A DNA stretch of 64,000 nt. Origin: an uncultured virus (IMG/VR IMGVR_UViG_3300032288_004103) (lineage: Duplodnaviria; Heunggongvirae; Uroviricota; Caudoviricetes). A program made the translations under genes and the position numbers. The stretch lies in IMG/VR virus record IMGVR_UViG_3300032288_004103, one strand, 5' to 3'. The notes beneath the pieces are model-generated. The model was given only the letters and a program-made list of their open reading frames with translations. It made no database searches and was not told the origin of the DNA. Positions 2-56,775 of this stretch are shown here, piece after piece; position 1 is the first letter of the stretch; every line of letters starts with the position of its first letter.

Positions 2-2194
2 TTAGGTATAAGTTCTCACGCAGAAGGTAATTTTACAACATCAATAGGAGATTATTCTCACACTGAAGGTAGATTAACAATATCATCAGGACAATATTCT
101 CACGCTGAAGGTAATAATACAACGTCAATAGGAGGTTTTTCTCACGCAGAAGGTAATTTTACAAAATCAATAGGACTATATTCTCACGCAGAAGGTAATA
201 ATACAACTTCAATAGGAGATTTTTCTCACGCAGAAGGTGGTTCAACAACATCATCAGGAGGAACATCTCACGCTGAGGGTAGTCTTACAATATCAATAGG
301 TCCTTGGTCACACGCAGAAGGTTCTAATACTATATCGTTAGGTGATACTTCTCACTCGGAAGGATTTTTAACAACATCAGTTGGCGATTCTTCTCACGCA
401 GAAGGAATACAAACAACTTCAATAGGAGATTATTCTCACGCAGAAGGGTCTGGCACAACATCAGTAGGAATATATTCTCACGCTGAAGGTAGTCTTACAA
501 TATCATCAGGTATTACTTCACATGCAGAAGGTGGTGCTACAACGTCATTAGGTTTTGCATCTCATGCAGAAGGATTTTTAACAACTTCATCAGGTAATTA
601 TTCTCACGCTGAAGGTTTACAAACAACATCAATAGGAATTAGTTCTCACTCAGAAGGTATTTCTACAACTTCATCAGGTAATTATTCTCACGCTGAAGGT
701 AGATTAACAATATCATCAGGAATATATTCTCACGCAGAAGGGCAAGGAACAACATCGTCAGGAGATTATTCTCACACTGAAGGTAGATTAACAATATCAT
801 CAGGACAATATTCTCACGCTGAAGGTCGACAAACAACATCAGTAGGGATATATTCACACGCAGAGGGATTTCAAACAACATCATCAGGAGTAACATCTCA
901 CGCTGAGGGTAGTCTTACAATATCAATAGGTCCTTGGTCACACGCAGAAGGAAGTCAAACAAACTCAGTAGGTGATACTTCTCACTCAGAAGGATTTTTA
1001 ACAACATCAGTTGGCGATTCTTCTCACGCAGAAGGTTTAAATACAACATCATCAGGAGATTATTCTCACTCAGAAGGTAATAGTACAAAAGCATTAGGTT
1101 TTATTTCTCACGCTGAAGGATATTTAACAACATCATCAGGTAATTATTCTCACGCAGAAGGTTTAAATACAACCGCATTAGGTAATAGTTCTCACGCAGA
1201 AGGTTCTAATACTATATCGTTAGGTAATAATTCTCATTCAGAAGGTTATTTAACAACATCATCAGGAATATATTCTCACGCTGAAGGAAGACAAACAACT
1301 TCAATAGGAGATTATTCTCATTCAGAAGGTTATTTAACAACATCATCAGGAATATATTCTCACGCAGAAGGTCAATTAACAACCGCATTAGGTAATAATT
1401 CTCATTCTGAAGGTGGTGATACATATTCATCAGGTGATTATTCTCACGCAGAAGGATTTTTAACAACATCAATTGGATTTGCTTCACATGCAGAAGGTTT
1501 AAGTACAACTTCATCGGCTAATTATTCTCACGCAGAAGGGTTAGGTACGATAGCTTACGAACTTTACCAACACGTATCTGGACAATATAATAATACTACT
1601 AACGCAAATCAGTATTTTATAATTGGTAACGGAACATCAAATGCAACTAGATCAAATGCGTTTAGAGTAGATTCCGCAGGTAATGTATACGGTGCTGGTG
1701 CAACATATAACTCAGGTGCGGATTATGCAGAATACTTTGAGTCTTTATCGGGAGACTCAATACCTTACGGTACTGTTGTAGAATTAGAAGATGGTAAAAT
1801 AAAAGTTTGTACTGACTCAAATAATGCGATAGGTGTTATTTCGTCAAATCCAACTCTAATAGGTAATAATGAAGAAGGTACTGCTGATGAATGGGTTGGT
1901 AAATACGATAAAGACGAGTGGGGTAAATACATTATGGAAGATTATACATATGAAATGATAGATTATATAGATAGTAGTGGCAATACATTCTATAAAACAG
2001 TAACAAGTCAACGACCAAAAATTAGTGATAATTATGATCCTAATGTACAATACATACCAAGATCACAAAGACCCGAGTGGAACGTAGTTGGTTTAGTGGG
2101 TCAAGTTAGAATTTTAAAAAATCAACAAATACCTAATAGATGGATTAAAATGAAAGATATAAATAACGATATCGCTATTTATTTAATTAGGTAA
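2..2194 (+). CDS. Tail fibre/spike (5'-truncated): YadA-head-like 14-aa SHAEG repeats plus C-terminal Peptidase_G2 intramolecular chaperone
   Basis: Frame from base 2 (LGISSHAEG...) is the same frame as track ORF 1934..2194. It has 37 S-H-[AST]-E-G repeats at 42-bp period, then FIIGNGTSNATRSNAFRV, GADYAEYFE and RPEWNVVGLVGQV, typical of the phi29 gp12-type autocleaving chaperone domain. Confidence 0.85.
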   Translation, partial: LGISSHAEGNFTTSIGDYSHTEGRLTISSGQYSHAEGNNTTSIGGFSHAEGNFTKSIGLYSHAEGNNTTSIGDFSHAEGGSTTSSGGTSHAEGSLTISIGPWSHAEGSNTISLGDTSHSEGFLTTSVGDSSHAEGIQTTSIGDYSHAEGSGTTSVGIYSHAEGSLTISSGITSHAEGGATTSLGFASHAEGFLTTSSGNYSHAEGLQTTSIGISSHSEGISTTSSGNYSHAEGRLTISSGIYSHAEGQGTTSSGDYSHTEGRLTISSGQYSHAEGRQTTSVGIYSHAEGFQTTSSGVTSHAEGSLTISIGPWSHAEGSQTNSVGDTSHSEGFLTTSVGDSSHAEGLNTTSSGDYSHSEGNSTKALGFISHAEGYLTTSSGNYSHAEGLNTTALGNSSHAEGSNTISLGNNSHSEGYLTTSSGIYSHAEGRQTTSIGDYSHSEGYLTTSSGIYSHAEGQLTTALGNNSHSEGGDTYSSGDYSHAEGFLTTSIGFASHAEGLSTTSSANYSHAEGLGTIAYELYQHVSGQYNNTTNANQYFIIGNGTSNATRSNAFRVDSAGNVYGAGATYNSGADYAEYFESLSGDSIPYGTVVELEDGKIKVCTDSNNAIGVISSNPTLIGNNEEGTADEWVGKYDKDEWGKYIMEDYTYEMIDYIDSSGNTFYKTVTSQRPKISDNYDPNVQYIPRSQRPEWNVVGLVGQVRILKNQQIPNRWIKMKDINNDIAIYLIR
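14..1567 (+). repeat. 42-bp (14-codon) coding tandem repeat, 37 copies
   Basis: tctcacgcagaaggt-type core at 14, 56, ... 1526 (exact 42-bp register); degenerate QHVSG copy at 1568. Confidence 0.95.
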
Positions 2195-2209: not shown

Positions 2210-3871
2210 ATGAGTAATATATACCAACATAATTTTGACAATTGCTTAAAAATGAGATTAAGTAACAGTGACTACTGGGACTTATTTTTATGTTATGATT
2301 GTACAGATGAACAAGATAATAACCAAATATTAGAGGATTGTATATTAGTAGATATAGACATTAATAATGACAATTCATTTTCAGGTGACACTTTATATAG
2401 TTTAACAACTTGGACAGGTGCAACAATTAATGGTAGTGGAATTACTTTAAATGATATAGGATTAACTGGTATCGATAATGGTTTTATAAATTATGATTGT
2501 ACCGCCTCAACAGATAGTCAAATATTTTTATCTGCGTTTACAGGATCAACATTATTTTTATCATCTGCAGATACAAGATTTTCTATGACAAGAGTTACTG
2601 GATGTACATATGATTACCCATTAGAAATAGATATTGATTCATTCGGTAGACACGCAGATTTATGTGGTGGATTTTATCAAGGGTTTTTTAAATTATCGGA
2701 TATAACTTATTTTAAAGAAATTACAGATAATAAATTTACTTGGCCTTTAGAATGGTTTAGATGTCCTACAATATGTAGTGGTGAAACTATAACTGATTGT
2801 TGTGGTACTGGTAGTACTTCTGGACATTCCTGTTCTATTAATCCAAATAAGGCGTACGAATGTTATTTAAATTTAAAACCCGTACCTTATAATTATCAAA
2901 TTTTACCATATAGATTAGGTGGTTTAGATATTCATTGTTTAGATGGTTGGACGGCAACATTTTGGTTAAATAAAAAATCAGAAAGTTGTACAGGTAATAC
3001 TTTAAATAATCTTTACCCAAACAATAAAGGATTTTTCTTTTATATGGGTACCAGATCAGAAAATAAATTTTGGGATTTATTTAGTGGTGAAACTGGTTAT
3101 ACTACCTCATCAGGATATCCTTTACCCCCACCAAAAGAAACTAAACAAGTATTAAATAATAACCCATTTTTAGTTTATCAACCAGGAGGGTGTGGTTGTT
3201 TTACGGGTATAACTACTGAAATTACACAAGAAAAAGATAGAAACGCAGATATTGTAGATAATGCGTTAGGATTTAGAATTAAAGATGATGGAAGTATCGG
3301 ATTTAGATCAGTTGTTATGACAGGAGTTTGTTCGGCAGTTACCGCAACAACAATAATAGATTGTTATAATAAATGCGGGTGTGGAAATACAGGAACAACT
3401 ACCGCAACATCGGTAACCACAAAATATATTACAGGAACTAGTATATATGAATGTTATAGTGATTCAGGATTAATTAATACCGATGTCTGGAATCACGTAG
3501 CAATAAGATTTAAACCTTATGAACAATATACTAAATGTGAATTAGTTAACATACCTAAAAGAAAAGGTGTTTTAACTGTCTATGTAAATGGTTATCTTAA
3601 ATGGACTTTAGAGGATTTTGATGAATTTATTTTTAGAGAACTGGATGAATATAGAGAAAAACAACAAGGAGTACCTTTTAATTATAGTTTTGGGGGTGGA
3701 ACGCAAGGTTTAATAGAATCAAATACTGTTAATGGTCCTGACATAAAAGATAACAATTTAGTAATACAAAATAATTTTGCAGGTACTTTTGAAGGTAAGG
3801 TATCTAAATTTAGATTATATGGTTGTTCTTTAGATATAACCACAATAAGAGCAGAAATTAATAATGTTTGA
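2210..3871 (+). CDS. Cys-rich virion structural protein with LamG/concanavalin-A-like domain
   Basis: 553 aa; WNHVAIRF..LTVYVNG..FEGKVSKFRLY are LamG-like strands; many Cys; follows the fibre gene. Confidence 0.6.
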   Translation: MSNIYQHNFDNCLKMRLSNSDYWDLFLCYDCTDEQDNNQILEDCILVDIDINNDNSFSGDTLYSLTTWTGATINGSGITLNDIGLTGIDNGFINYDCTASTDSQIFLSAFTGSTLFLSSADTRFSMTRVTGCTYDYPLEIDIDSFGRHADLCGGFYQGFFKLSDITYFKEITDNKFTWPLEWFRCPTICSGETITDCCGTGSTSGHSCSINPNKAYECYLNLKPVPYNYQILPYRLGGLDIHCLDGWTATFWLNKKSESCTGNTLNNLYPNNKGFFFYMGTRSENKFWDLFSGETGYTTSSGYPLPPPKETKQVLNNNPFLVYQPGGCGCFTGITTEITQEKDRNADIVDNALGFRIKDDGSIGFRSVVMTGVCSAVTATTIIDCYNKCGCGNTGTTTATSVTTKYITGTSIYECYSDSGLINTDVWNHVAIRFKPYEQYTKCELVNIPKRKGVLTVYVNGYLKWTLEDFDEFIFRELDEYREKQQGVPFNYSFGGGTQGLIESNTVNGPDIKDNNLVIQNNFAGTFEGKVSKFRLYGCSLDITTIRAEINNV

Positions 3872-3883: not shown

Positions 3884-4252
3884 ATGGAATTCTTTATAAA
3901 CAAAAATAGTACACTACCTAAATTAAAAATGGAATTAGTGAATGACGGAAGAAATGATTTTCGTAAATTTTATGAAAAAATTCAAAACGCAGATATAACA
4001 TTTACTATGTACGATGTAGAAACAAAAATTAAAAAAATTTCGTGTTCACCTGCATATATAGAAATGGCAGTCGCTAATGATTGTGAAAATACTGAAACAC
4101 CAACATATTATATAACGTATCAATTTACAGAACAACAAACAAATAAATCTGCTAGATATAATGGTTATTTTACAATTAATTTTTTAGATGGGACAGGAAA
4201 ATTAATTGCCCCAATTAGAGATGAATTATATATTAATATATTAAATAATTAA
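3884..4252 (+). CDS. Virion-associated protein, possibly BppU N-terminal-like Ig fold
   Basis: 122 aa, beta-rich pattern (LPKLKMEL..ITFTMYD..YNGYFTINF); preceded by ATATTTAT at 3871. Confidence 0.4.
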   Translation: MEFFINKNSTLPKLKMELVNDGRNDFRKFYEKIQNADITFTMYDVETKIKKISCSPAYIEMAVANDCENTETPTYYITYQFTEQQTNKSARYNGYFTINFLDGTGKLIAPIRDELYINILNN

Positions 4253-4271: not shown

Positions 4272-4541
4272 ATGGCAAAGTTAACATCAGAAGAAATTGC
4301 GGGATTAAAAATTATTAGAACAACTTTTGAAGGTAATAAATGGATTGTTTTAGTTTCAGATGAAAATGGTTATATTTATAGAGCTATGTTTGAAGGATTA
4401 GAAAACGATGAAAATAGTTCTATTATAACTAAAACAAAAAATTATTTATTAGACGTTGAGAAATTTGTTCCTACAATTTTACCAACTCCATTGGTTAGAG
4501 AAGACATAGTGGGATCAACTTTAGGGGAAACAGAAAAATAA
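4272..4541 (+). CDS. Hypothetical protein
   Basis: 89-aa ORF with A-rich leader, tightly packed with neighbours. Confidence 0.7.
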   Translation: MAKLTSEEIAGLKIIRTTFEGNKWIVLVSDENGYIYRAMFEGLENDENSSIITKTKNYLLDVEKFVPTILPTPLVREDIVGSTLGETEK

Positions 4542-4577: not shown

Positions 4578-5627
4578 ATGAATTATTGTAATTTTAACTA
4601 TAAAACTACATTACCGAAAGATGCTAACGCACCTTCGGTTTATATTTATGGTGATATTCCTATTGAATATTTAGTTTCATTTAATGTAGAAAAAAATAAT
4701 GAATTAATTAATATTAGTGATGTAATTTGTAAAACAAATGAAACTGTTTATGCTAATTACACCCAATCTTATACAAATTGGGTTATAAATGTTTATGAAA
4801 ATAATAAATTAGTTGCTAAAAATGTATTTAACCCATCTGAAAAAGTTGTATTCATAAAAATGGATGCTCACGCTTTGGGTGATAATATAGCTTGGATTCC
4901 CTACGTTGAGGAATTTAGAAAAATAAGGAATTGTACAGTAATCTGTTCAACTTTTTATAATGATTTATTTAAGAATATTTACCCTAATATATTATTTGTG
5001 GCACCAAATACAAATGTTGATAATGTTTATACCCAATTTTATATAGGTGCAACACATAAATTAGATATTAAATACTCACCAGTTTGTGTGGATGAGGTAC
5101 CATTACAATATGTAGCTTCAACCGTTTTGAATTTACCACTTAATGAAATAAGACCCCCATTGGAAAATCAATTAATAAAAAATAAAAATCATAAAAAATA
5201 TGTTTGTATTTCTGAATTTGCCAGTAGTGAGGATAAACATTGGAAATATGAAAACGGTTGGCAAATTATTGTGGATTATTTAAATTCTATTGGTTATGAC
5301 GTATTAGTCATATCAAAAGAAAAAACTGAATTAAAAAATATAATAGATTTAACAGGTAATAAACCATTAATAGAAAGAGCTCAATTAATTCATAATGCAG
5401 ATTTTTTTATTGGTTTAAGTTCAGGACTTTCTTGGTTATCTTGGGGTGTCGGTACCCATACTTTTTTAATAAGTGATGTAACTCAAATGAATCATGAATT
5501 TACTACAAATATTAGTAGAATATCTGCGAACCCAACTATTACTAAAATTCAATATGATTTACCGAATGTTACACACCCAAACACAGTCATAGAAAGAATA
5601 AATGAATATTTAGAAATCAAAAATTAA
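4578..5627 (+). CDS. Aah/TibC-like protein O-glycosyltransferase (autotransporter heptosyltransferase family, GT9-like GT-B fold)
   Basis: ALGDNIAWIPYVEEFRK..C.VICSTF and ADFFIGLSSGLSWLSWGVG..EF motifs match the autotransporter heptosyltransferase pattern. Confidence 0.8.
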   Translation: MNYCNFNYKTTLPKDANAPSVYIYGDIPIEYLVSFNVEKNNELINISDVICKTNETVYANYTQSYTNWVINVYENNKLVAKNVFNPSEKVVFIKMDAHALGDNIAWIPYVEEFRKIRNCTVICSTFYNDLFKNIYPNILFVAPNTNVDNVYTQFYIGATHKLDIKYSPVCVDEVPLQYVASTVLNLPLNEIRPPLENQLIKNKNHKKYVCISEFASSEDKHWKYENGWQIIVDYLNSIGYDVLVISKEKTELKNIIDLTGNKPLIERAQLIHNADFFIGLSSGLSWLSWGVGTHTFLISDVTQMNHEFTTNISRISANPTITKIQYDLPNVTHPNTVIERINEYLEIKN

Positions 5628-5690: not shown

Positions 5691-8513
5691 ATGCCTGCAT
5701 CGGTAGATGAAATTAAAGAGTATTTAGAGGGTTATGATGAACAAAAATATATAGTTGGGGTAGAATCCTCATACTATGAAAATAAAGTATTTTTAATAAT
5801 TCACGATCCGGAAAATGGTAAAAGGATAGAAAAACACAAATTTACACCATTTTTATGGATGAAAAGTTTGGACTTATCTAATCTTTATGGTGGGGATAAA
5901 AAATTAATTAAAGAAAAAATTAAAGAATTTAAAATAAAATTTACCTCTCTAAGTATAGAAGATGAATATGAACAAGTTGTCTCTAGGTTAGAAAATGGTT
6001 ATAAATTTTTAGTTAGTTCTAAAGGTTGTTATGGTGATTTAATTAAATTTTTTAAATTTGGGAAAATGGATATTTTTTCAGAACAATTTAGAGATAATTT
6101 TTTAACTATAAGTCCTACAGAACAATTCTTAATTCAAACAGGAAAAAGACTTTTTAAAGGTATGGACAACTATAATGATGTTCATAGATTATCTTTTGAC
6201 TTAGAGACAACAGGATTAGACCCAAAAGAAAGTAGGATATTCCAAATAGGTATTAAAGATAATAGAGATTTCCAACATGTATTGTCAATAAATGGTGAAA
6301 CAGAAGAAGAATTATTAATGTGGGAATCAAAAGCAATAATAACCTTTTTTAAAATAATAAACCATTTAAAACCAGCAATCATTGCAGGATATAACTCAGA
6401 GAATTTTGACTGGTATTTTATAGTAGAAAGGTGTAAAATTTTAGGTATTGATATAACTAAAATTGCTAAGACTTTGGGTAATGTACCTTTCTACAGAAAA
6501 ACACAAACTCTAAAAATGGGTCCTGAAATGGAGTATTATGAACAAACACATATGTGGGGTTATAATATTATGGATGTTTATCATGCAGTTAGAAGGGCAC
6601 AAGCAATTAATTCCTCTATAAAAGAGGCAGGACTAAAGTATATCACAAAATATTCAAACGCAGCAAAACCTAATCGTGTTTATATACAAGGTGATAAAAT
6701 CAGTAAAATATATGAGGATAACGAAAATGATTATTGGTTTGATGAAATAAACGGTAAATGGGGTAAAATTAAAGATGATATACAACCAGAAAATACTTCT
6801 TTAGTAAAAGGTTCTTATATAGTAGAAAGATATTTAATCGATGACTTGTGGGAAACTGAGAAGGTTGATGATATTTTTAATCAGGCAACATTTCTTTTAT
6901 CTAAAATTTTACCTACAACATTTATGCGTTCTTCTACTATGGGAACTGCCGCAACTTGGAAATTATTAATGTTAGGGTGGTATTATAGAAGTGGTATTGC
7001 AATTCCACATACAATGCCTTCTAAAGGGTTCATTGGTGGATTATCTAGGTTACTAGAAGTAGGTTATAGTGAGAACGTAGTTAAATTTGACTTCGCATCA
7101 CTTTACCCCTCAATACAATTAACTCATAATGTTTTTACTGAATGTGATGTTATGGGTGCGATGAGGGGGTTATTAGAATATAACTATAACTATAGAAATT
7201 TATATAAAGAATTAAAAAATAAATACGCGTCTGAAGGTGATAAAGAAAAATCTGCGTTTTATGATAAAAAACAATTACCATTAAAGATTTTAAATAATGG
7301 TATGTTTGGTTCTATTTCCGCACCTAATGTATATCCTTGGGGAGATTCTGATATGGGGGAAAAAATAACTTGTACAGGTAGGCAATATCTTAGACATATG
7401 ATTAGATTTTTTTCTTCAAAAGGATTTAAACCTTTAGTGGGTGATACGGATGGATTTAACTTTTCAGTACCTAAAGATGTAGATAGATATGTTTATACAT
7501 CAAATGGTAACCACCACTTCAATAAATTAGGTAAAACTTATAAAGGTATGTCTGCAGTTGTTGCAGAATATAATGATAAATACATGAAGGGTGTTATGGG
7601 ATTAGATGTAGATGAAATATGTTCATCAACTATTAATTTATCTAGAAAAAATTATGCAGATTTAATCGATGGTAAAGTTAAATTAGTAGGGAATTCAATT
7701 AAGTCTAAAAAAATGCCTGTTTACATTTCAGAATTTATAGATAAAGGTATCAGATTATTATTAGATGGTAATGGATTAGATTTTGTTAATGAATATTATG
7801 AAACGGTAGAAATGATTTATAATCAAGAAATACCACTTTCAAAAATCGCAAACAAAGCTAGAGTTAGAATTAGTATAGATGAATACAAAAAGAAAATGAA
7901 GACTACTAATAAATCAGGTGGTTCTTTAGCCAAACAAGCACATATGGAATTAATAATAAAAGAAAACTTAAATGTTAATTTAGGTGATACTATTTATTAT
8001 GTTAATACAGGTACTAAAAAATCGCACGGAGACGTTCAAACTAAAGCTCATAGTAATTTTACTAAAAAAGAAACAGAACTATATTATATCAATAATGGTA
8101 AAATGCCTGATCCAACTAAAATAGAATTATACATCAATTGTAGATTAATACCTAATAATTTAATAGAAAATGATCCTGATGCCACTGGTGAATATAATGT
8201 AGAAAGATATTTAGACGCATTTAATAAAAGAGTAAAGCCATTATTAGTATGTTTTGATCCATCTATAAGAGAAGATATATTAATCACATCACCTTTAGAA
8301 AGAAAATACTTTACCGCACAAGAATTAACTTTAACATCAGGTAAACCTTTTAAAAATGAAGATCAGGATAAATTAGAAGAATTATTAACCATAACTGATG
8401 AGGAGTTAGAGTTTTGGAATAGAATAGGTGTTTCCCCTACTTATATGTTTGAGGATTATGGAATTGCAGATGAATTCTCATATGACATAAAGACCCAAAG
8501 GTCGATAGTTTAA
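5691..8513 (+). CDS. polB: Family B DNA polymerase
   Basis: Exo I DLETTG, Exo II YNSENFD, motif A DFASLYPS, motif B KILNNGMFG, motif C GDTDG. Confidence 0.95.
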   Translation: MPASVDEIKEYLEGYDEQKYIVGVESSYYENKVFLIIHDPENGKRIEKHKFTPFLWMKSLDLSNLYGGDKKLIKEKIKEFKIKFTSLSIEDEYEQVVSRLENGYKFLVSSKGCYGDLIKFFKFGKMDIFSEQFRDNFLTISPTEQFLIQTGKRLFKGMDNYNDVHRLSFDLETTGLDPKESRIFQIGIKDNRDFQHVLSINGETEEELLMWESKAIITFFKIINHLKPAIIAGYNSENFDWYFIVERCKILGIDITKIAKTLGNVPFYRKTQTLKMGPEMEYYEQTHMWGYNIMDVYHAVRRAQAINSSIKEAGLKYITKYSNAAKPNRVYIQGDKISKIYEDNENDYWFDEINGKWGKIKDDIQPENTSLVKGSYIVERYLIDDLWETEKVDDIFNQATFLLSKILPTTFMRSSTMGTAATWKLLMLGWYYRSGIAIPHTMPSKGFIGGLSRLLEVGYSENVVKFDFASLYPSIQLTHNVFTECDVMGAMRGLLEYNYNYRNLYKELKNKYASEGDKEKSAFYDKKQLPLKILNNGMFGSISAPNVYPWGDSDMGEKITCTGRQYLRHMIRFFSSKGFKPLVGDTDGFNFSVPKDVDRYVYTSNGNHHFNKLGKTYKGMSAVVAEYNDKYMKGVMGLDVDEICSSTINLSRKNYADLIDGKVKLVGNSIKSKKMPVYISEFIDKGIRLLLDGNGLDFVNEYYETVEMIYNQEIPLSKIANKARVRISIDEYKKKMKTTNKSGGSLAKQAHMELIIKENLNVNLGDTIYYVNTGTKKSHGDVQTKAHSNFTKKETELYYINNGKMPDPTKIELYINCRLIPNNLIENDPDATGEYNVERYLDAFNKRVKPLLVCFDPSIREDILITSPLERKYFTAQELTLTSGKPFKNEDQDKLEELLTITDEELEFWNRIGVSPTYMFEDYGIADEFSYDIKTQRSIV

Positions 8514-10660: not shown

Positions 10661-12461
10661 TTTCTAATTTATTTAAAAATTCATTTATTATTTCATCTTC
10701 ACCCATTATAGTTCCGATAACTTTTCTTTTTTCATTAAGAATATCCCATATTAATGTATCTATGGTTTCATCTATTAACATATAATAAATATTAACAGTT
10801 TCTTTTTGTCCAATTCTATATGCCCTATCTTCCGCCTGTTCGTGATTTCCTGGTACCCAATCTAAAGAATTCATAATGACTATTTCTGCTTTAGTTAAAG
10901 TTAAACCAACACCTGCGGCTTTAATTTGTCCAATAAAAACCATACAATTTTCATCTTCTTGAAATTTATCTACAGATAATTGTTTTTGTTTATCACTCAT
11001 ACCACCTCTAACACAAACCGCTTTATTACCAAAATGATTTAAAAACGCATCCATTTCATCATTAAAATTACAGAATATTATAACTTTTTTATTTAATTCT
11101 AAAGCTTCTTCCGCTTTTTCAATTGAATAAGGTACAGTTTCCATTGCAATAAAAGTCCTTAATAAAGTCATCTCTACTAAGTCTTTTGCAGGATTACCTT
11201 TTTTACCATCTATTTTTCTTTTGTTAAGATAATCATTCCACACATTTTTATATCCATTTACATTTTCTAATTCTAAATAAACTGGTGTAATTAATTTTTC
11301 AGGTAAATCCAAAACGTCTTCTTTTTTTCTTCTGAGAATAGTTCTTTTTGTTTTAGTAGATAATTCATCTAAATTTGATGCTCCTTTTGTAACCCAAACA
11401 AATTTACCTCCTTTTTTGAATCTCATACCTTCACAATAAGTTTTAGCGTAATGAACCCAATTATTTGCCACAGGAGAATCTATGATAGATAGTAAGTTAT
11501 AATAATCCATAGGTCGATTCGCTATAGGTGTACCAGTTAATAACCAAACTCTAGCAGACTTAAAACTCTTTACAACATCTTTTATTATTTTCCCTCTTAT
11601 ACTTTTATGATTTTTTACAAAGTGGGCTTCATCTAAAATTATTAATTCAGGATTAAATTCTATTAATTCTCTCCTTAATTCCCAATCTTCATATTCTTTA
11701 TTCCTTTCTTTTATTGTATGAAAATTTTTTAATATATCGTAATTGATTATAGTAAACTTATCAGGATCCCAATAATTACCTTTTATTATCGATACATCGT
11801 TACAAAAATTTTCTACCTCTCTTTTCCAATTTATTTTTAAAGAAGAAGGACATATTATTAAAATTCTTTCTACACCTGTTTCTAATGCAGCTACTATTGA
11901 TTGGTATGTTTTACCTAATCCCATATCATCTGCAAGAATACATTTTTGATTTTTTAATAAAAATTTTACCCCCTCTTCTTGATGACTAAAAGCTTTCCAT
12001 CCCCTTCTATCTAATTCTTTATACTTTTCAAAATCAATCTCCACATTTATTTCTTCAAAATGTATATCGTCTAACAATTGAGTTTTAGGTACCCATAATA
12101 ATTTAAAATCATCTTGTTTTTTATGTAACTTACATAAAACATGAATAGCTTTGTCTGACTCCGCAATTAAAGTATCTATAAAAATTTTTTTAGGTGTTAT
12201 ATTTAATTTATGTTCTTCCTGTAATTGTTCAGAATAATAATTGGTGACCTCAATAATTTTATTTATAACTTTTGGTTCGAAATAAAAATAAGATTTAATA
12301 TAATTTGATTGATTATTTGTTAAGTAATAATTTTTTTCTGTCAATAATTTTTTCTTCATATAACGTATATAAGGGTTTTTACCCTCATATGAAGTTAATA
12401 AAGTTTCTACATCCAAATTATTGATATCCTTAATATCTAACATAATTTTAAATATAGACAT
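10650..12461 (-). CDS. SNF2-family (SMARCAL1/HARP-like) helicase
   Basis: LADDMGLGKT, ILDEAH, LTGTPIAN, AAGVGLTL, QAEDRAYRIGQ. Confidence 0.92.
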   Translation of the reverse strand: MSIFKIMLDIKDINNLDVETLLTSYEGKNPYIRYMKKKLLTEKNYYLTNNQSNYIKSYFYFEPKVINKIIEVTNYYSEQLQEEHKLNITPKKIFIDTLIAESDKAIHVLCKLHKKQDDFKLLWVPKTQLLDDIHFEEINVEIDFEKYKELDRRGWKAFSHQEEGVKFLLKNQKCILADDMGLGKTYQSIVAALETGVERILIICPSSLKINWKREVENFCNDVSIIKGNYWDPDKFTIINYDILKNFHTIKERNKEYEDWELRRELIEFNPELIILDEAHFVKNHKSIRGKIIKDVVKSFKSARVWLLTGTPIANRPMDYYNLLSIIDSPVANNWVHYAKTYCEGMRFKKGGKFVWVTKGASNLDELSTKTKRTILRRKKEDVLDLPEKLITPVYLELENVNGYKNVWNDYLNKRKIDGKKGNPAKDLVEMTLLRTFIAMETVPYSIEKAEEALELNKKVIIFCNFNDEMDAFLNHFGNKAVCVRGGMSDKQKQLSVDKFQEDENCMVFIGQIKAAGVGLTLTKAEIVIMNSLDWVPGNHEQAEDRAYRIGQKETVNIYYMLIDETIDTLIWDILNEKRKVIGTIMGEDEIINEFLNKLENGH

Positions 12462-12505
12462 TTTTTTCTTAAAAATAAATATTTATCTATAAAACATATT
12501 TCAAT

Positions 12506-13018
12506 ATGCGTAAAATACCTATAGAACGTTTAAACAAATTTTTCTCTCAAGATGATTTTGAGTTAGAAATAGATTTTGGTCGAGAGTGGTTAGAGGGGGA
12601 TATTAATATAAAAGTTATTCTTTATAGAGTAGATAGAACTGAAACTACAAAAGACGATATTTATGGTGAGGCAGGTAAAAATGAAATTAGATTTAAACCA
12701 CCTGTAGAAATACCTGTTAGTTTTAGTTATGCAACACCAGCAAATAAAAATTATAATAGTGATGGATCATTAAGATTTTTAGAAAGAGGTAATTTAACTT
12801 TAGGTGTTTATCAAGAACAATTAGATGAATTAGGTGTAGACATTTCTTATGGTGATTATATAGGATATGCACAAACTGAAACGGATGTAAAATACTTTAC
12901 AGTTTCTAATGATGGTAAAATATTTTCAGATAATGCACATACTATTGGTGGGTATAAAGGGTTTTACAGAACAATAACATGCGTACCAACTGATTTAAAC
13001 GAATTTAACGGAATGTAA
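12506..13018 (+). CDS. Putative head closure/neck protein (gp14-like)
   Basis: 170 aa; DDIYGE motif, beta-rich, directly upstream of the tail-terminator-like gene. Confidence 0.55.
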   Translation: MRKIPIERLNKFFSQDDFELEIDFGREWLEGDINIKVILYRVDRTETTKDDIYGEAGKNEIRFKPPVEIPVSFSYATPANKNYNSDGSLRFLERGNLTLGVYQEQLDELGVDISYGDYIGYAQTETDVKYFTVSNDGKIFSDNAHTIGGYKGFYRTITCVPTDLNEFNGM

Positions 13019-14138: not shown

Positions 14139-16943
14139 ATGGCAAATGAATTCGTAATAAAGAATGGGTTTATATCTAAAGGAAACTCAACAATATCAGG
14201 TACATATTTACCTAATGGGTACGCCTTATCTGTAACTGGTGATACTAACCTTAATGGTGATTTAATAGTAACTGGTAGTACCATAATACAGGATGGTTTA
14301 ACAGCTAACACAATTTATACAGACTATATAGATTTTAATATTACCGCAAATACGACTCATCAAGAAGGTAGGATACATTGGAATGATACTTTAAAGACAC
14401 TACAAGTAGACACCGAAAATTCAGATGTAAGTATAAATGTTGGTCACGATGTTATACAAAGAGTAGTAAATAAAACTGGATCACCAATACTAAAAGGAAA
14501 AGTAGTTTATATAAATAGTGAATTTGGTGGTAGACCAACTATAACTTTGGCGAGTAATACTTCTGATTTAACATCTGCAAGGACTTTTGGTGTAGTAATG
14601 GATGATATTGACAATAACAAAAATGGATATGTTATTGCGTTTGGTTTACTTCAAGGTATCAATACAAATAGTTATACTGGCGGACAAACTTTATATTTAG
14701 GTGTCAATGGTAATGTAATAACAACTAAACCAATCGCACCTACACATTTAGTATATGTTGCTAAAGTAATATCTGTAGGTACAAATGGTTCTATATTTGT
14801 TTCCATTCAAAATGGGTTTGAGTTAGATGAATTACATGATGTAAGGATAACAACTCCTTTAAGTGGGGATTTACTTATAAGAAGTTCTTATTTAGGTAGT
14901 CCTGTTTGGGTAAATACTAAAACATTAAATGGTAATTATACTATATCAGGAAACACTTCACACATTGGCAATTTTAATATCACAGGAGATACTACACAGA
15001 TAGGAAATATAACATTATCTGGAAACTCTTTTATAACTGGAAATACAACTCAAATAGGGGATTATTTTATAACTGGAGATACTACACAAATTGGTGATTA
15101 TCATATAACAGGTAATACAACCCAATATGGTGATGTATTTTTAAGTGGTAATGGTAATTGTACTTTATTTGTTGACGGTAATGTTTGTATTGGTGGGGAT
15201 TTAAATATTAGTGGTAATACAACGCAAAGTGGTACAACAAATCAGACTGGCGATTTTAATATAACTGGTAACACTTCACAAATTGGTTTACATACACATA
15301 GTGGGGATACGTTTGTTACTGGAAATACAACACAGATAGGAGATATTAATATTACTGGTACGACAACTCAAATTGGTTTACACACCCATAGTGGAGATAC
15401 GTTTGTTACTGGAAATACTTTCGTAACTGGTGATACTGAGCAATTTGGTAATCTGTACATTAGTGGTGATAGTAATTGCACTTTATTTGTTGATGGTGAT
15501 GTTTGTATTAATGGTGATTTAAATATTACGGGTGATACAACGCAAATTGGTGATTATCATATAACAGGTAATACAAGTCAGATAGGTTTACACACACACA
15601 GTGGGGATACATTTGTAACTGGAAATACCATACAATTGGGTGATTCATTTATAGTTGGTAATGAATGGTTAACTGGAAATACAAATCAGATTGGAGTTTA
15701 CACACATAGTGGGGATACGTTTGTTACTGGAAATACAACACAGATAGGAGATATTAATATTACTGGTACGTCAACTCAAATTGGTAATATAAATTTAAGT
15801 GGAGATACCTTTATTACAGGTAATACAACGCAAAGTGGTACAACAAATCAGACTGGCGATTTTAATATAACTGGTAATACAACACAGATAGGTATATATA
15901 CCCATAGTGGAGATACTTTTGTAACTGGAGATACTGAACAATTTGGTAACTTATATATTAGTGGAGATAGTAATTGTACAATATATGTAGACGGTAATGT
16001 TTGTATTAATGGAAATTTAAATATTACTGGTAATACAACTCAGTTTGGTAATATAAATCTTAGTGGTAATACATTCATTACAGGAAATACAACTCAAATA
16101 GGGGATTATTTTATAACAGGGGATACTAACCAAATTGGTAATTCAGTTTTAAGTGGTAATACATTTATAACTGGAGATACTACACAATATGGTAATGTTT
16201 ATATAAGTGGTACTTCTTTACCAAATGAATGTGCGTTAGAGATTGATGGTAATGTTTGTATTGATGGTGATGTAAATATTACAGGTGATACATTTATGTC
16301 AGGAGATTTTTGTATGAATAATATGAATTCTGGTGGATTACCAACAGGTACTAATTGTTTTGACACTACTTTAATCCCAATAGGTACAACTGTAACCCAC
16401 CAATTTCAAAGTGAAAGTGGGGTTTTAGCACATATAGGTGATTTAGCAACTGGAGAACCGAATTCTAGGGGTTATACATATTATGAAAATAATATTACTA
16501 ATACATCATTTGTTACTGTAGGTCAAGGTGTTTTTACACCAGTAATTGGTGCACCTACAACATTCGCCCCATATAATAATTTATTTACTGTAACTACTGG
16601 TGCCACTACCGCAACAATACATAAATTAACTTATAATTATCCTCCAGCATCAGGTACTTCAAGTGCAACTTATTTAAAATTCACAGTTTCCCTTACAGTT
16701 CAAAATGGACAAAACCAACAACTTACATTTCAAGTAAGAAGAAAACGTGGCGTTACTTTTACTTTCTTACCTATAGGTATGTCTATAACACCACAAGCAA
16801 ATAATATACAAGGGATAACATTTAATGGAATATCAGATGCGTGGATTAATGACGAATTTCAAGTGGTCGTTAAAAATGATACTGGTAGTGGACCTTCCAA
16901 CTCAATAAGAATTGTGGATTTATCATTCTCAATGTTTACTTAA
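14139..16943 (+). CDS. Tail fibre/whisker with long 6/12-aa beta-helical repeat region
   Basis: 934 aa; MANEFVIKNG N-terminus, ELDELHDV motif, ITGNTTQIGD-type repeats. Confidence 0.75.
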   Translation: MANEFVIKNGFISKGNSTISGTYLPNGYALSVTGDTNLNGDLIVTGSTIIQDGLTANTIYTDYIDFNITANTTHQEGRIHWNDTLKTLQVDTENSDVSINVGHDVIQRVVNKTGSPILKGKVVYINSEFGGRPTITLASNTSDLTSARTFGVVMDDIDNNKNGYVIAFGLLQGINTNSYTGGQTLYLGVNGNVITTKPIAPTHLVYVAKVISVGTNGSIFVSIQNGFELDELHDVRITTPLSGDLLIRSSYLGSPVWVNTKTLNGNYTISGNTSHIGNFNITGDTTQIGNITLSGNSFITGNTTQIGDYFITGDTTQIGDYHITGNTTQYGDVFLSGNGNCTLFVDGNVCIGGDLNISGNTTQSGTTNQTGDFNITGNTSQIGLHTHSGDTFVTGNTTQIGDINITGTTTQIGLHTHSGDTFVTGNTFVTGDTEQFGNLYISGDSNCTLFVDGDVCINGDLNITGDTTQIGDYHITGNTSQIGLHTHSGDTFVTGNTIQLGDSFIVGNEWLTGNTNQIGVYTHSGDTFVTGNTTQIGDINITGTSTQIGNINLSGDTFITGNTTQSGTTNQTGDFNITGNTTQIGIYTHSGDTFVTGDTEQFGNLYISGDSNCTIYVDGNVCINGNLNITGNTTQFGNINLSGNTFITGNTTQIGDYFITGDTNQIGNSVLSGNTFITGDTTQYGNVYISGTSLPNECALEIDGNVCIDGDVNITGDTFMSGDFCMNNMNSGGLPTGTNCFDTTLIPIGTTVTHQFQSESGVLAHIGDLATGEPNSRGYTYYENNITNTSFVTVGQGVFTPVIGAPTTFAPYNNLFTVTTGATTATIHKLTYNYPPASGTSSATYLKFTVSLTVQNGQNQQLTFQVRRKRGVTFTFLPIGMSITPQANNIQGITFNGISDAWINDEFQVVVKNDTGSGPSNSIRIVDLSFSMFT
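14930..16310 (+). repeat. Coding repeats (x-[IV]-[ST]-G-[ND]-T units) with exact block duplications
   Basis: Identical blocks 15213-15271/15819-15877 and 15294-15362/15702-15770. Confidence 0.85.
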
Positions 16944-17882: not shown

Positions 17883-20738
17883 ATGGCATCAACAGACAGA
17901 ATTTTTGTGAGTCCTGGAGTGTTCACTTCAGAAAAAGACTTAACATTCGTAACTAGACAAGTTGGGGTTACTACGTTGGGATTATTGGGTGAGACACCTA
18001 AAGGACCAGCTTTCGAACCAGTTTTCATTTCTAATTACGATGAATTTATTAGTTACTTTGGTGGATTAAATCCCGAAAAATTTAAAGCCAATGGTTTCAA
18101 TAAATATGAACTTAATTACATAGCAAAATCTTATTTAACACAAACAAATCAACTTTATGTGAGTAGAGTATTAGGTTTGTCAGGTTATAAAGCAGGTAAT
18201 GCGTGGTGTATCACTTTGGATTCTTCAGAAGATCCTTCCACAACGGGTATTACAAATACAACATCATATCCAGTATTGTTAACTTATTCAGCTAGTAGCG
18301 TTAACGGAATTCCTACTTCATTAACATTTAATGACGCAAATTTAAACGCACTTTATAATGATGGACAAATTAATACTTTATTTAATAATATAGGTATTTT
18401 AAATACTGGAGGTACTATATCAATTACTTCACCTCTTTATGTAAAAACTGGATGTAACTTTAGTGGAGCAACTTTTGATATGACTGTTGTATCTAAAGGT
18501 AGTGGTGCAACTACTGGATTTGTAACTGGTACAACTAGTGGTACTGTCGTTAGTTATACCGCAAATTGTTACACAGATGTTGACGGTAGTGTTATAGCAA
18601 CATTAAGATCTAGAGGTTCTTACGATGGATTAGAGAATTTAACATACGATGTTACTGGTGTTACAGACACTTTAATGACTAATACTTCTAATTTACCATT
18701 AAATTCATTAGCTTCTTTTAATATTTCAGGTGTAACATATAATGGAGTTAATTTTAACTATGAAGTTTCTATGGATAGGACTAAAAAGAATTTCTTACCT
18801 AGAGTATTTGGTCAGTCTACACAAGATAAAGAAACTGAACTTTGGGTAGAAGAAATTTATACTAACGTATTAGAAGATTTAATTTCAGCTAAAAAAGTAA
18901 GAGGGTTAGATACTTCATTTGTTAATATAGGTTCAACAACAACAAATAATTTAAATAACTATTTAGAAGGTTGGAAAACTGCGGTATCTCCTTGGGTTCT
19001 TTCAGAATTAAAAGGTACGGGTGTGGGTAATACATTACAGAGATTATTTAGATTAGTAACAATATCTGATGGTAATGCGGCTAATCAAGACGTAAAATTT
19101 TCAATTTTAAACATCCAACCAGATAATAAAACTTTTGATTTAATCATTAGAAAATTTAATGATACTGATGCAAATCCTAATATTGTAGAGAAATTCTCTT
19201 CACTTTCTATGGATAGTAATTCAGTTGGATTTATAGCTAGAAAAATAGGTACTACAAACGGAGAATTCCCACTTAGAAGTAAATATGTTATGGTTGAATT
19301 GTGGGATGATACGGATCCAGATTTAGGTAACCATTTCCCTGCTGGTTTTGAGGGGGTTCTTAATAGAACATATATTGGTTCTAATAGAACTGCTCTACCA
19401 CCAAAAATTGAATATAAAACTAAATATACCGATTTTAATACATCTAAATTGAGAAAAACTTATTTAGGTTTAAATAGTGAGATTGGTGTGGATCAAGATT
19501 TCTTTAATTATATGGGGGTAAATGCAGTTAATAATGGTGAATACACAGGAAAAACTGCAGGTTTCCACTTAGATAAAAATGCACAAGGTGCTATGATAGA
19601 ATTAGGTAGTAATAGTTATGTTCCTACATTACAAGTTGGTGTTTCAGCATTTACTACTGACGCAGGATTAATAAATGGTCCATATGAAAAATTATCAGCT
19701 CGTAAATTCACTTTTGCACCTTACGGTGGATGGGATGGATGGGACGAATATAGGACTAAAAGAACTAATGGTGATAGTTATACTAAAAATGGAACTAAAG
19801 GTTCTTTAGGTACTTCTAAAGGTTTATTTAATACATTTGTAACAACTGAAGGTGATGATGGTATCACTTCTGACTATTACGCATACTTAAATGGTATATA
19901 TACATTTAATAATCCTGAGGCGGTTAATATAAATGTATTTGCAACACCAGGTATAGATTTAAGGGATAACATAAGTTTAATTGAAAATGCGGTTGACGTT
20001 ATTGAAACGGATAGAGCGGATTCACTTTATATTGTAACAACTCCTGACGTTGATGCGGATGGTGTAGTATTAACTCCTGGTGAGGCAGTAGATATTGTTG
20101 AGGATTCTGGAATTGATTCTAACTATTCTGCCACATATTGGCCTTGGTTACAAATGAATGATACTGAAAACAATAGATACGTTTGGTTACCTCCTACAGT
20201 TGAGGTTGTTAGAAACATCGCTTTAACAGATAATGTTGCTTTCCCTTGGTTCGCAGCAGCAGGTTTAAACAGAGGTACAACAACAGCAATAAAAGCTAGA
20301 GTTAAACTTAAATTAGATGATAGAGATGATTTATATGAGGGAAGAATTAACCCTATGGCAACTTTCTCTGATGTAGGTGTAGTTATTTTTGGTAATAAAA
20401 CATTACAAGTTAAAGAAACCGCACTTAATAGAATTAATGTTAGAAGATTGTTGTTACAAGCTAGAAAACTTATTTCAGCAGTATCAATCAGACTATTATT
20501 TGAACAAAATGATGACGTTGTAAGAAATCAGTTCTTAAGCTTAGTTAACCCAATATTAGATAATATTAGAAAAGAAAGAGGTTTAACAGACTTTAGAGTA
20601 ACATTAGATGATACTCCAGAATCTATCGATAGAAATGAATTAAATGGTAGAATCTTTATTAAACCTACAAGGTCGTTAGAATTTATTTCAATAGAATTTA
20701 ACATTACTAACACAGGAGCAAGTTTTGACGATATTTAA
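17883..20738 (+). CDS. gp18: Tail sheath protein
   Basis: VSPGVFTSEKD N-terminus; PWFAAAGLNRG, LYEGRINP, GNKTLQ, RINVRRLL, FEQND, IKPTRSLEFI. Confidence 0.95.
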   Translation: MASTDRIFVSPGVFTSEKDLTFVTRQVGVTTLGLLGETPKGPAFEPVFISNYDEFISYFGGLNPEKFKANGFNKYELNYIAKSYLTQTNQLYVSRVLGLSGYKAGNAWCITLDSSEDPSTTGITNTTSYPVLLTYSASSVNGIPTSLTFNDANLNALYNDGQINTLFNNIGILNTGGTISITSPLYVKTGCNFSGATFDMTVVSKGSGATTGFVTGTTSGTVVSYTANCYTDVDGSVIATLRSRGSYDGLENLTYDVTGVTDTLMTNTSNLPLNSLASFNISGVTYNGVNFNYEVSMDRTKKNFLPRVFGQSTQDKETELWVEEIYTNVLEDLISAKKVRGLDTSFVNIGSTTTNNLNNYLEGWKTAVSPWVLSELKGTGVGNTLQRLFRLVTISDGNAANQDVKFSILNIQPDNKTFDLIIRKFNDTDANPNIVEKFSSLSMDSNSVGFIARKIGTTNGEFPLRSKYVMVELWDDTDPDLGNHFPAGFEGVLNRTYIGSNRTALPPKIEYKTKYTDFNTSKLRKTYLGLNSEIGVDQDFFNYMGVNAVNNGEYTGKTAGFHLDKNAQGAMIELGSNSYVPTLQVGVSAFTTDAGLINGPYEKLSARKFTFAPYGGWDGWDEYRTKRTNGDSYTKNGTKGSLGTSKGLFNTFVTTEGDDGITSDYYAYLNGIYTFNNPEAVNINVFATPGIDLRDNISLIENAVDVIETDRADSLYIVTTPDVDADGVVLTPGEAVDIVEDSGIDSNYSATYWPWLQMNDTENNRYVWLPPTVEVVRNIALTDNVAFPWFAAAGLNRGTTTAIKARVKLKLDDRDDLYEGRINPMATFSDVGVVIFGNKTLQVKETALNRINVRRLLLQARKLISAVSIRLLFEQNDDVVRNQFLSLVNPILDNIRKERGLTDFRVTLDDTPESIDRNELNGRIFIKPTRSLEFISIEFNITNTGASFDDI

Positions 20739-20771: not shown

Positions 20772-21056
20772 ATGAAAATTAGAAAAAACGGGAAAACTAT
20801 TACTTTGTCTGAGACTGATATGAAAAGAATAGTAAAAAAATTATTAAAGGAAAATGAAGATCCTAAAAATGATTTAGTTGTATGTTGTAGTGAAGCAGGT
20901 ATTAAACCACCAGCATCTTGTTTAAGTGGTGACGCTGAAGAGTGTCTTAAAGAAGTTGGTAAAATGGTTATTAATGATCCATTTGGTGTAGGAACTAAAG
21001 CAATTGCAGCATTAAATTGTCTTAAAGATAAATCAAATTCACCAATTAAAAGTTAA
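20772..21056 (+). CDS. Small protein with LSETDMKRIVKKLLKE leader (putative head-internal)
   Basis: 94 aa with shared leader motif and 5 Cys. Confidence 0.6.
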   Translation: MKIRKNGKTITLSETDMKRIVKKLLKENEDPKNDLVVCCSEAGIKPPASCLSGDAEECLKEVGKMVINDPFGVGTKAIAALNCLKDKSNSPIKS

Positions 21057-21061
21057 ATATT

Positions 21062-21424
21062 ATGAAAAAAAGAGTAGTTAGATTAACAGAATCAGATTTA
21101 AGAAGAATCGTAAGACGAGTTATTAAAGAAGATATGGGTGGTATGGACGATAGAGGGGAGTATGACCCTAGATTTTATGCACCATCTCCTGATTATGAAG
21201 AAGGCGAAGAGTGGGGTGAAAAGGAATATGACCCTAGATTTGATGCACCATCCCCTGATTATGAAGAAGACGATGACGATTATAGTGGATTGAAAGATGT
21301 TCATCGTAAATGGTATGATCAAAATATGGGAAAACATAGGGAAGACTCAGAATTTGGAGGGGAGAGACAAAGAAGGTTAAGAAATAGAATGCCTGAAAGT
21401 TATAAAAAATTCAGAAGAAGATAA
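21062..21424 (+). CDS. Small acidic protein with LTESDLRRIVRRVIKE leader (putative head-internal)
   Basis: 120 aa; internal duplication EYDPRF[YD]APSPDYEE. Confidence 0.65.
   Translation: MKKRVVRLTESDLRRIVRRVIKEDMGGMDDRGEYDPRFYAPSPDYEEGEEWGEKEYDPRFDAPSPDYEEDDDDYSGLKDVHRKWYDQNMGKHREDSEFGGERQRRLRNRMPESYKKFRRR
21158..21269 (+). repeat. 46-bp near-identical direct repeat, 66 bp apart
   Basis: Copies at 21158-21203 and 21224-21269. Confidence 0.9.
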
Positions 21425-25246: not shown

Positions 25247-26191
25247 ATGAGAAACAATATTTTAAACCTAAAAGAAGAAATTTTAAGAATTAAATCTTTA
25301 TTTACTGAAGAGAGAATGTTTGGTAATTTAGTTGAGGATGATCCAGGATGTCAATGCGATGATCCAAAAAAGGAAAAGTATGGAAAATATAATCCAACGA
25401 CTAGTCAATGTGATCCTAAACTATGTGAAAATAAAGATAAAGATGGTAAAAATGTACCCGCACCTTTAGCAGATAAAGCTAAAAATATGAATTTTAAAAC
25501 TAAAGCAGATGCTCAAGGAGAAAAAGAGGAAATGAAAGCAGATTATCAAGAAAAGAAAACTGATTATAAATTAGATGAAAAGAGTTGTAAAGATCATTTA
25601 AAATATATGATAAAAGGTACTAGATCTGGAAAAACAAAAGAAATGTATCAAAAGACGGCAAATAAAAATGGTGGTACCGATATGGATGTTTTTGTATGGT
25701 GCATGAAAAATCATTCAGATAAATGGCAAAATAGAAACGATGGTAATTTACCTTGGCAAAAAACAGATGAAATTAGAAGATTATACGATACTTTAAGTTT
25801 ACCAATGCCTAAATGGTTATCCGCTAGAGCAGACGATGGTGAGACTAGTGACGATCAACAAATAACTAATGATTTTTATGATGAAGAAGGTGCAGAAGGT
25901 GGCGGAAGTGGAAGAATTGTAGTAAAAAATGATGCGGGTAGAAAAATAGCAATTATACATCGTAAAGGTACAGAAAATAAATGGACATTTAGAACACCAA
26001 TAAAATTAAAAAATGCAATACCATTAATAGATAAATCAGATAAAGGAAATATTAAATTTAGGGATACGTATGTAAATGATATATATAAAAGATTAAATAT
26101 TGATCCTAAAAAACAAAGAATAGTAATTCAAAAAGCAATCGAGACAGATGGATATGATCAAGGTACCTTTGTTTTAAAAAATTTAGAGTAA
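25247..26191 (+). CDS. Hypothetical protein with LKEEILRIKSLFTEERMFGNLVE leader
   Basis: 314 aa; leader recurs inside the next gene. Confidence 0.65.
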   Translation: MRNNILNLKEEILRIKSLFTEERMFGNLVEDDPGCQCDDPKKEKYGKYNPTTSQCDPKLCENKDKDGKNVPAPLADKAKNMNFKTKADAQGEKEEMKADYQEKKTDYKLDEKSCKDHLKYMIKGTRSGKTKEMYQKTANKNGGTDMDVFVWCMKNHSDKWQNRNDGNLPWQKTDEIRRLYDTLSLPMPKWLSARADDGETSDDQQITNDFYDEEGAEGGGSGRIVVKNDAGRKIAIIHRKGTENKWTFRTPIKLKNAIPLIDKSDKGNIKFRDTYVNDIYKRLNIDPKKQRIVIQKAIETDGYDQGTFVLKNLE

Positions 26192-26206
26192 AATAATTTA
26201 TTTATA

Positions 26207-29767: not shown

Positions 29768-29770
29768 AAA

Positions 29771-32134: not shown

Positions 32135-32173
32135 AAATATTTACAAATAACAATTTAATAGTATAATAGTTTT

Positions 32174-32953: not shown

Positions 32954-32960
32954 CCATTTA

Positions 32961-33086
32961 ATGTATCTACATAAAGAAATTAATTATTTAGTGAATAAGG
33001 GATATTCTTATTCAGATATAATGATAATGCCAACATATTCCAGAAGAATTTTTATTAATGAATGGAATAAATCAAATACAGAATAG
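32961..33086 (+). CDS. Small gp51-like tail chaperone segment (not in ORF track), possibly expressed by frameshift
   Basis: MYLHKEINYLVNKGYSYSDIMIMPTYSRRIFINEWNKSNTE; YSYSDI..MP...R pattern of gp51/tail-chaperone C-terminal segments. Confidence 0.65.
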   Translation: MYLHKEINYLVNKGYSYSDIMIMPTYSRRIFINEWNKSNTE

Positions 33087-33121
33087 TTTTTTATTTTTTT
33101 AAATATTTATAATAAAAATAA

Positions 33122-56131: not shown

Positions 56132-56143
56132 GGATTTTTTTTT
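56115..56143. terminator. Terminator between convergent genes
   Basis: AATCCCTAC-AAAA-GTAGGGATT followed by a T run. Confidence 0.75.
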
Positions 56144-56705: not shown

Positions 56706-56775
56706 AGTTGTTTTGTATTTATATAAGAACAAATATAATAGTTTTTTTTTAAAACACAAATTTTTTTTTAAAAAT

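Follow-up and report, generated by a model that had tools for sequence, protein, structure and literature searches.

A tail-protein [ST]-[GA]-x-T tag in a clade of jumbo myoviruses, and an optional TibC-like glycosyltransferase gene that varies independently of it

The window, by which we mean the whole 64,000-nucleotide stretch of viral DNA that was analysed, is AT-rich (28% GC) and of the jumbo myovirus type. It carries genes for a family B DNA polymerase (PolB), an SNF2 helicase, the tail sheath, the tube, and the tape measure, together with gp32, RecA, DnaB, NrdJ, and baseplate genes. Relatives have genomes of 320-410 kb. By sheath and capsid, the closest named phages are Flavobacterium phage immuto and Mel-JY01, and Bacteroidota is the probable host phylum. 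In gene content the phage resembles the moraphages, described in PMC12619734 as aquatic jumbo myoviruses with predicted Bacteroidota hosts, four core glycosyltransferase groups, and genes for PolB, PhoH, dUTPase, and a sigma factor; the available text of that report names no heptosyltransferase or motif.

The genes at the locus lie on the plus strand. The window opens with the C-terminal part of a YadA-head-like fibre (2..2194; PF05658, PF11962), which has 37 Ser-rich 14-residue repeats and a peptidase G2 chaperone domain. It is followed by a clade-core protein of 553 aa (2210..3871), a conserved 122-aa gene (3884..4252), an 89-aa gene (4272..4541), and the gene for a 349-aa TibC/Aah-like GT9 glycosyltransferase (4578..5627), which stands, as originally placed, after the fibre/structural cluster and ahead of PolB (5691..8513), our synteny anchor and motif-free control. 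Further along are a 934-aa fibre (14139..16943), with a 6/12-residue Gly-periodic repeat at about 14931-16313, and the tail sheath (17883..20738). The 553-aa protein is probably lectin-like, with a LamG/CBM40 fold predicted at low confidence; its model (pLDDT 44) is too poor for placing motif residues on the surface, and we infer its virion location only from gene position and this lectin-like fold.

The transferase had been predicted to be of the Aah/TibC type, and profile, sequence, and structure comparisons bear this out. The profile match is partial: PF01075 recognizes the enzyme, and TIGR04414, covered at profile positions 46-319 of 374, scores 185.7 bits, under its cut-off of 200. The only sequence matches in the PDB are to TibC (4RAP, E 3e-26). 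The predicted structure (pLDDT 95) matches TibC over its full length in Foldseek (E 2e-24, TMq 0.76-0.83), with about 23% identity in the structural alignment, versus E 8e-10 and TMq 0.51 for WaaC. The model contains an N-terminal beta-barrel and a GT-B catalytic domain and lies nearer TibC than WaaC/WaaF. An identity as an LPS heptosyltransferase (WaaC/WaaF) is ruled out by this structural match and by a score of 20.4 bits, against a cut-off of 185.3, with the WaaC model TIGR02193. We found 1151 homologues of similar length.

To assess conservation, we mapped the TibC residues named in PMC4358343 onto the enzyme. TibC D110, T226, K230, R286, and W305 correspond to D102, S216, K220, R267, and W286, with Thr changed to Ser at S216. 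Across 67 aligned homologues of the 120 listed, D102, S216, K220, S281, and W286 are invariant and R267 is kept in at least 90%; this conservation suggests a pocket compatible with an ADP-heptose donor. Two modules are missing. There is no Cys after residue 308, hence no four-cysteine iron finger, and most of the beta-hairpin thumb is gone, leaving a 9-residue gap opposite TibC 267-275. Loss of either the iron finger or the thumb is described as abolishing TibC activity (PMC4358343). Because both assembly modules are missing, a dodecameric ring is unlikely for the enzyme. The 64 distinct phage domains that we gathered divide into 18 finger-less ones and 46 that keep the cysteines, the latter frequently within fusions that include GT4 and FkbM domains.

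With the bacterial autotransporter heptosyltransferases (BAHT; TibC/TibA and Aah/AIDA-I; 4RAP; PMC4358343, PMC3835316), as described in those reports, the window enzyme has in common the N-terminal beta domain, the GT-B core, and the catalytic and sugar residues. Like Aah it has Ser at the P300 position, and it too has a neighbour with autotransporter-like repeats, a candidate substrate. It differs in its absent iron-finger cysteines, its 9-residue thumb deletion, its score below the cut-off, and in being phage-borne and optional. The enzyme is thus BAHT-like in its predicted working, yet it is no full BAHT member.

The original prediction paired this enzyme with an [ST]GxT motif in virion proteins. 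Its hand counts were exact: 12 copies in the 553-aa protein, 37 in the 934-aa fibre, and 8 in the sheath, against 0.92, 4.72, and 1.54 expected (1000 shuffles, p=0.001, the floor), and none in PolB or NrdJ. The two zeros are uninformative alone, because only 0.39 and 0.24 copies are expected; ten non-virion enzymes hold 2 copies against 1.5 expected in 4258 aa. The first motif residue is Thr in 38 of the 57 copies in the 553-aa protein, fibre, and sheath, and the wider form [ST]-[GA]-x-T occurs 17 times in the 553-aa protein against 1.2 expected. Since 34 of the 37 fibre copies belong to a single tandem repeat in which Gly recurs at 6-residue spacing (68 of 75 intervals), they are not independent of each other, and the independent signals are those of the 553-aa protein and the sheath. 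Seven of the 8 sheath motifs fall in residues 121-285 (about 18243-18737), and residues 670-951, the core like that of solved sheaths, hold none; the insertion region would, as in T4 gp18, face outward.

Confinement of the motif to outer virion proteins holds in part. The three proteins above are enriched, but 12 neck, tube, hub, tape-measure, and baseplate-region proteins are not (2 copies against 4.0 expected in 6827 aa), and neither are the major capsid proteins of seven relatives (1-3 copies of the wider motif against about 1). The portion of the YadA-like fibre inside the window holds 5 motifs against 3.2 expected; its repeats are 21% Ser, with the wider motif found 4 times against 5.1 expected. 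A sugar coat over the whole particle, as first envisaged, is ruled out by the lack of motif enrichment in capsid, tube, and baseplate; a coat, if any, would sit on tail parts.

We next consider the form of the motif. In 46 motif-rich proteins, SGxT is enriched 5.9-fold, TGxT 3.7-fold, [ST]AxT 3.0-fold, and SGxS 3.4-fold; this pool was chosen on the motif itself, and SAxT and SGxS (about 3-fold) were not used in choosing. In the same proteins DGxT (0.9x) and NGxT (1.0x) stay at the chance level. Alignment columns of 35 sheaths and 11 orthologues of the 553-aa protein tell the same story residue by residue: S and T exchange, G and A exchange, the third place is free, the final Thr is fixed, and D or N rarely substitutes at the first position. 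A plain beta turn is expected to tolerate Asn or Asp. Judged by these patterns, the motif is really [ST]-[GA]-x-[T>S] and sequon-like in behaviour. An unbiased scan of three-residue patterns placed TGxT, SGxT, or SAxT at the top in G002, G030, G056, and G057, and none of them at the top in G037, G044, G055, G043, or G045. The reverse word Tx[GA][ST] reaches 0.9-1.7x only. Genome-wide, [DN]GxT is enriched 2.0-fold in the window and 2.2-fold in G057, and part of the signal is therefore a general GxT bias.

On balance we lean slightly toward reading the motif as a glycosylation site. The main competitor, possible although doubtful, is a structural role: the motif would mark a turn plus strand in the beta-rich folds of fibres and lectins, and would have spread as repeats expanded and by common descent. 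On this view the clade's core transferases act on DNA or on another target, and the motif has nothing to do with the TibC-like enzyme. The single repeat behind most fibre motifs, the twofold [DN]GxT excess, and the common ancestry of the relatives all fit such an origin, and DNA is described as a frequent target of phage glycosyltransferases (PMC12619734). What it explains poorly is one word recurring in unrelated folds (sheath, lectin-like protein, and fibres), the failure of D/N forms to rise with it in motif-rich proteins, a relative (G055) with the same proteins and no motif, and sister clades that carry a different word. That other word is [ST]GS, enriched in immuto (50 observed against 27 expected in 100 of 160 kb), Mel-JY01 (99 against 31 in 150 of 190 kb), and G045 (87 against 35). 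In these phages (L425 for immuto, L077 and L428 for Mel-JY01, and G045) the [ST]GS enrichment is found in the sheath and tail-region proteins. No TibC-like match was obtained for immuto, a phage in culture on Flavobacterium.

The TibC-like gene proves to be optional. In G002, a close relative (PolB 86%, sheath 88%, 78% complete), it is absent throughout, and there, as in other cassette-less relatives, the 122-aa gene directly precedes PolB; the 89-aa gene and the enzyme therefore form a clean cassette, whose insertion site the 122-aa gene marks. The 89-aa gene stands immediately upstream of the enzyme in L001-L005, L448, and L450, and is missing along with it in G002; its product has no family match and only one other homologue. 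Searches of relatives with TIGR04414 found the enzyme in 1 of 13 records, in 14 of 40 (all 14 chosen for the gene), and in 0 of 5 (three complete), and a PF01075 search in 0 of 5.

The motif does not follow the cassette. Motif counts in G002 are unchanged, at 12 and 8, and all 13 distinct orthologues of the 553-aa protein with PolB on the locus (two loci without PolB were excluded) lack the TibC-like gene there and keep 9-17 motifs. Genome-wide, with repeat proteins removed, observed over expected [ST][GA]xT counts are 265/97 in G056, 213/102 in G057 (first 400 of 413 kb), 111/96 in G055, 129/65 in G002, and 176/68 in G030, which lack the enzyme, and 141/85 in G037, 174/101 in G044, 130/103 in G043, 78/63 in G045, 103/40 in G006, and 38/16 in the window, which have it. 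Seven complete genomes were scored (G037, G043, G044, G045, G055, G056, and G057; G041, G042, and G048 fell outside the scoring): two have both enzyme and motif, two the enzyme only, two the motif only, and one neither. G056 and G057 are thus enriched 2-3-fold with no TibC-like gene, and G043 and G045 are TibC-positive and unenriched. Mel-JY01 carries a TibC-like fusion and no sheath motif.

By this pattern of presence and absence, the TibC-like enzyme is neither necessary nor sufficient for the motif. The original prediction, that it glycosylates [ST]GxT, runs against equal enrichment in enzyme-less relatives, an outcome that it had itself named as refuting, and, on its proposed check of co-occurrence in related phages, against discordance in four of the seven complete genomes; its observation was largely right and its mechanism misattributed. 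Presence and absence in the 13 orthologues, G002, G043, G045, G056, and G057 largely rule the enzyme out as the motif's writer. We accordingly give that model a very small probability, in spite of the intact enzyme residues and the motif-rich genes around it. TibC-like genes occupy several positions in the clade, so repeated recent loss is conceivable, and action on some motif serines is possible. Nevertheless, close and complete enzyme-less relatives keep the motif, motif-less phages have the enzyme, and only 4 of 30 enzyme clusters have a motif-rich gene in the flanks retrieved. Known relatives point the same way: in the mapped peptide TibC modified Ser and not Thr (PMC4358343), whereas Thr opens most of the motifs here, and Aah is described as recognizing structure and not sequence (PMC3835316). 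What BAHTs read is a strand-loop-strand structure and not this motif. The automatic label "autotransporter heptosyltransferase", frequent on such phage genes, misdirects to the wrong enzyme for the motif.

Since the TibC-like gene is optional and the tag is kept without it, the writer is more likely to be another phage transferase, one that is conserved. Outside the window, close to the capsid genes, the clade has a core cluster of two GT4-like and two GT2-type genes, and the four are conserved clade-wide. The prime candidate for a first step is a 418-aa GT4-like protein (G002:230067-231323), and the second is a GT2-type domain (G002:232501). A search of 80 records, largely fragments, turned up the GT4-like gene in 40, and 5 of 10 complete ones have it. 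The gene is present in G037, G044, G056, and G057, where the motif is enriched 1.7-2.7-fold (only 1.7-fold in G037 and G044), and absent from G043, G045, and G055, at 1.2-1.3-fold; gene and motif agree in 7 of 7 complete genomes scored, with one independent loss. That loss is in G055, which is nested in the clade as sister to G056 and G057 (support 100) on a long branch. It keeps two core transferases and lacks the 418-aa GT4-like gene and one GT2-type gene. Its orthologues have lost the motif: over 109 pairs, 38 copies against 34.7 expected compare with 55 against 33.3 in G056, and its orthologue of the 553-aa protein has 0.

Other genomes extend the picture unevenly. The fragment G068 has GT4, lacks the GT2-type partner on its 59 kb, and has strong motifs. 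LR756501, a distant genome of 735 kb, combines a 35% GT4 homologue, a motif count of 40/16 in 150 kb, and a TibC-like gene; LR756508 matches neither the GT4 nor the TibC-like gene and counts 13/12 in 100 kb. ESCO13 has 22% GT4 homologues and no enrichment (22/24), and we found no cultured phage with both GT4 and motif. For G069 and G070 the data cover the syntenic place, from which GT4 is absent, and add no contrast on the motif. We treat the GT4 link as a lead, drawn from one loss event and clade membership; that the GT4-like enzyme initiates on the motif is a tentative suggestion. We infer that the source genome of the window also carries the gene.

The tag could instead serve another modification (phosphate, phosphoglycan, or acyl) or a host cytoplasmic enzyme, with no phage glycosyltransferase involved. 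Sequence statistics cannot name a chemistry, and the G055 branch must have lost further genes as well; still, we think this improbable, given four core transferase genes conserved over the clade and the lack of enrichment for the known Bacteroidota sequon in these proteins. The Bacteroidota O-glycosylation system (PMC12871550), from the probable host phylum, resembles the proposed one in being sequence-directed and visible as motif enrichment. It uses another motif, D[ST][AILVMT], and is described as periplasmic and acting on exported, non-cytoplasmic proteins, whereas virions assemble in the cytoplasm. This sequon is unenriched in the window (52 observed against 56 expected), and host sequons of the forms D[ST][AILVMT] or N-x-[ST] are ruled out as unenriched. 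As a control on the method, D[ST][AILVMT] did emerge elsewhere: a repeat protein of G056 has it, as do four small proteins of envelope type from G055 and G045. The four (G055:181027, 264338, and 368807; G045:133209) have an N-terminal hydrophobic segment and 4-7 copies against 0.4-1.0 expected; apparently they are phage envelope proteins adapted to host O-glycosylation, and as such a clue to the host. In G037 and G044, about ten proteins each have mucin-like Thr-Pro repeat stretches.

We propose, with about even confidence, that tails throughout the clade bear an O-glycosylation tag, that a core enzyme writes it, and that the TibC-like enzyme is an optional decorator; glycosylation itself, writer, donor, and substrate are all read from sequence patterns. 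Fibres, certain tail-associated proteins, and the insertion region of the sheath carry the tag [ST]-[GA]-x-[T>S], which would be an acceptor for cytoplasmic O-glycosylation, modified by the core cluster near the capsid genes, with the GT4-like protein the best candidate for the first step and the GT2-type domain the second. The cassette, an 89-aa gene and a stripped-down TibC relative, would act on a restricted substrate, attaching one more sugar either to the Ser-rich YadA-like fibre or to glycans already on the tag; its donor would probably be heptose-like and carried on ADP or another NDP. Phage-encoded heptose pathways are rare in these phages, with gmhA in 2 of 44 and rfaE-like genes in 4 of 44, all under the cut-off.

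The neighbourhood of the enzyme bears on its target. A YadA-type fibre is near it in 6 of 11 finger-less clusters versus 2 of 19 finger-bearing ones (Fisher p 0.028, uncorrected, with kinship ignored and one cluster reclassified by hand), and collagen-like genes are neighbours in 13 of 19 finger-bearing versus 2 of 11 finger-less clusters. In the other five finger-less clusters the flanks contain no YadA-type fibre. The YadA-like fibre is unchanged in relatives without the cassette, and its repeat make-up shows no clear difference between loci with and without the enzyme. Our best guess for the enzyme, on this pattern, would be optional decoration of the YadA-like fibre or capping of existing glycans. 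The same association, and the absence of two modules that TibC needs, would also suit a binding or folding partner of the fibre with no working transferase, comparable to Burkholderia BimC, which is reported to bind BimA and lack transferase activity (PMC6439308). We hold this to be unlikely: the 67 homologues share the catalytic Asp, Lys, and Trp without exception, and at least 90% of them keep the Arg that contacts adenine.

Precedents for such decoration are partial. In mycobacteriophage Che8 (PMC11256854, PMC12619734), phage glycosyltransferases are likewise proposed to decorate virion subunits, and the glycans are reported on capsid and tail-tube subunits, at their C-termini. The motif sites described here are numerous and internal, on the sheath, fibres, and lectin-like protein, and capsid and tube are unmarked. 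The TLP-12 glycofibril (bioRxiv 10.1101/2025.09.30.679562), a freshwater trimeric 12-residue beta repeat with glycans on two Ser/Thr three residues apart, shows, by analogy only, how the structure of a fibre such as that at 14139-16943 could accommodate a coat of glycans. It differs in its repeat, GSxxS, with Gly before the first hydroxyl, and is linked in that report to a dinoflagellate protein. A literature search, as far as the accessible text of its sources goes, found no described phage TibC-like enzyme or virion sequon.

More speculatively, this widespread clade of aquatic and gut-type jumbo myoviruses may have its own cytoplasmic, sequon-directed O-glycosylation, in which a core GT4-like enzyme starts at [ST]-[GA]-x-T, other core enzymes lengthen the glycan, and the outer sugar varies with interchangeable modules, TibC-like and fused to methyltransferases, with sister clades using other sequons such as [ST]GS. 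If true, the tails of each phage clade would bear a glycosylation code of their own that could be read in the sequence. Having both a defined motif and a named candidate for its writer makes the question testable, and could yield a soluble sequence-directed O-glycosyltransferase, in a field where phage virion glycosylation is documented in few cases.

Several further observations follow. Domains of the GT4, FkbM methyltransferase, and TibC-like types are joined in large fusion proteins of 700-1900 aa at L077:4750-8430, in L138-L140, L150, and L154, and at G037:315357-319046; in close relatives some lie upstream of the sheath as head-to-head insertions, and that of Mel-JY01 is annotated as FkbM only. 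G006 has both subtypes, finger-less and finger-bearing (11744-12793 and 31718-32866), each by a different YadA-type fibre. In L112-L116, finger-less TibC-like genes lie in a non-structural region with small conserved neighbours and no fibre within the flanks. Large in-frame insertions, probably inteins, occur in PolB, SNF2, and the GT4-like gene (L100-L103, L106, L005, and G020-G022). GT4-like homologues also appear on contigs binned into Gammaproteobacteria MAGs (L446 and L447), probably mis-binned phage DNA. Within the window, at 20772-21424 and 25247-34234, unrelated ORFs open with a common short leader, of type 'rLtEsdl..ivk.vikE' or 'nlkEEi.RiKslf', which is also found clade-wide and is possibly a capsid-targeting and processing signal. 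A Cys-rich repeat protein of 627-689 aa (56590-58659, plus strand) lies ahead of the gp25 wedge gene, and the same region holds an opposite-strand ORF (56142-56759, minus strand) with an HExxH motif and a signal-like start.
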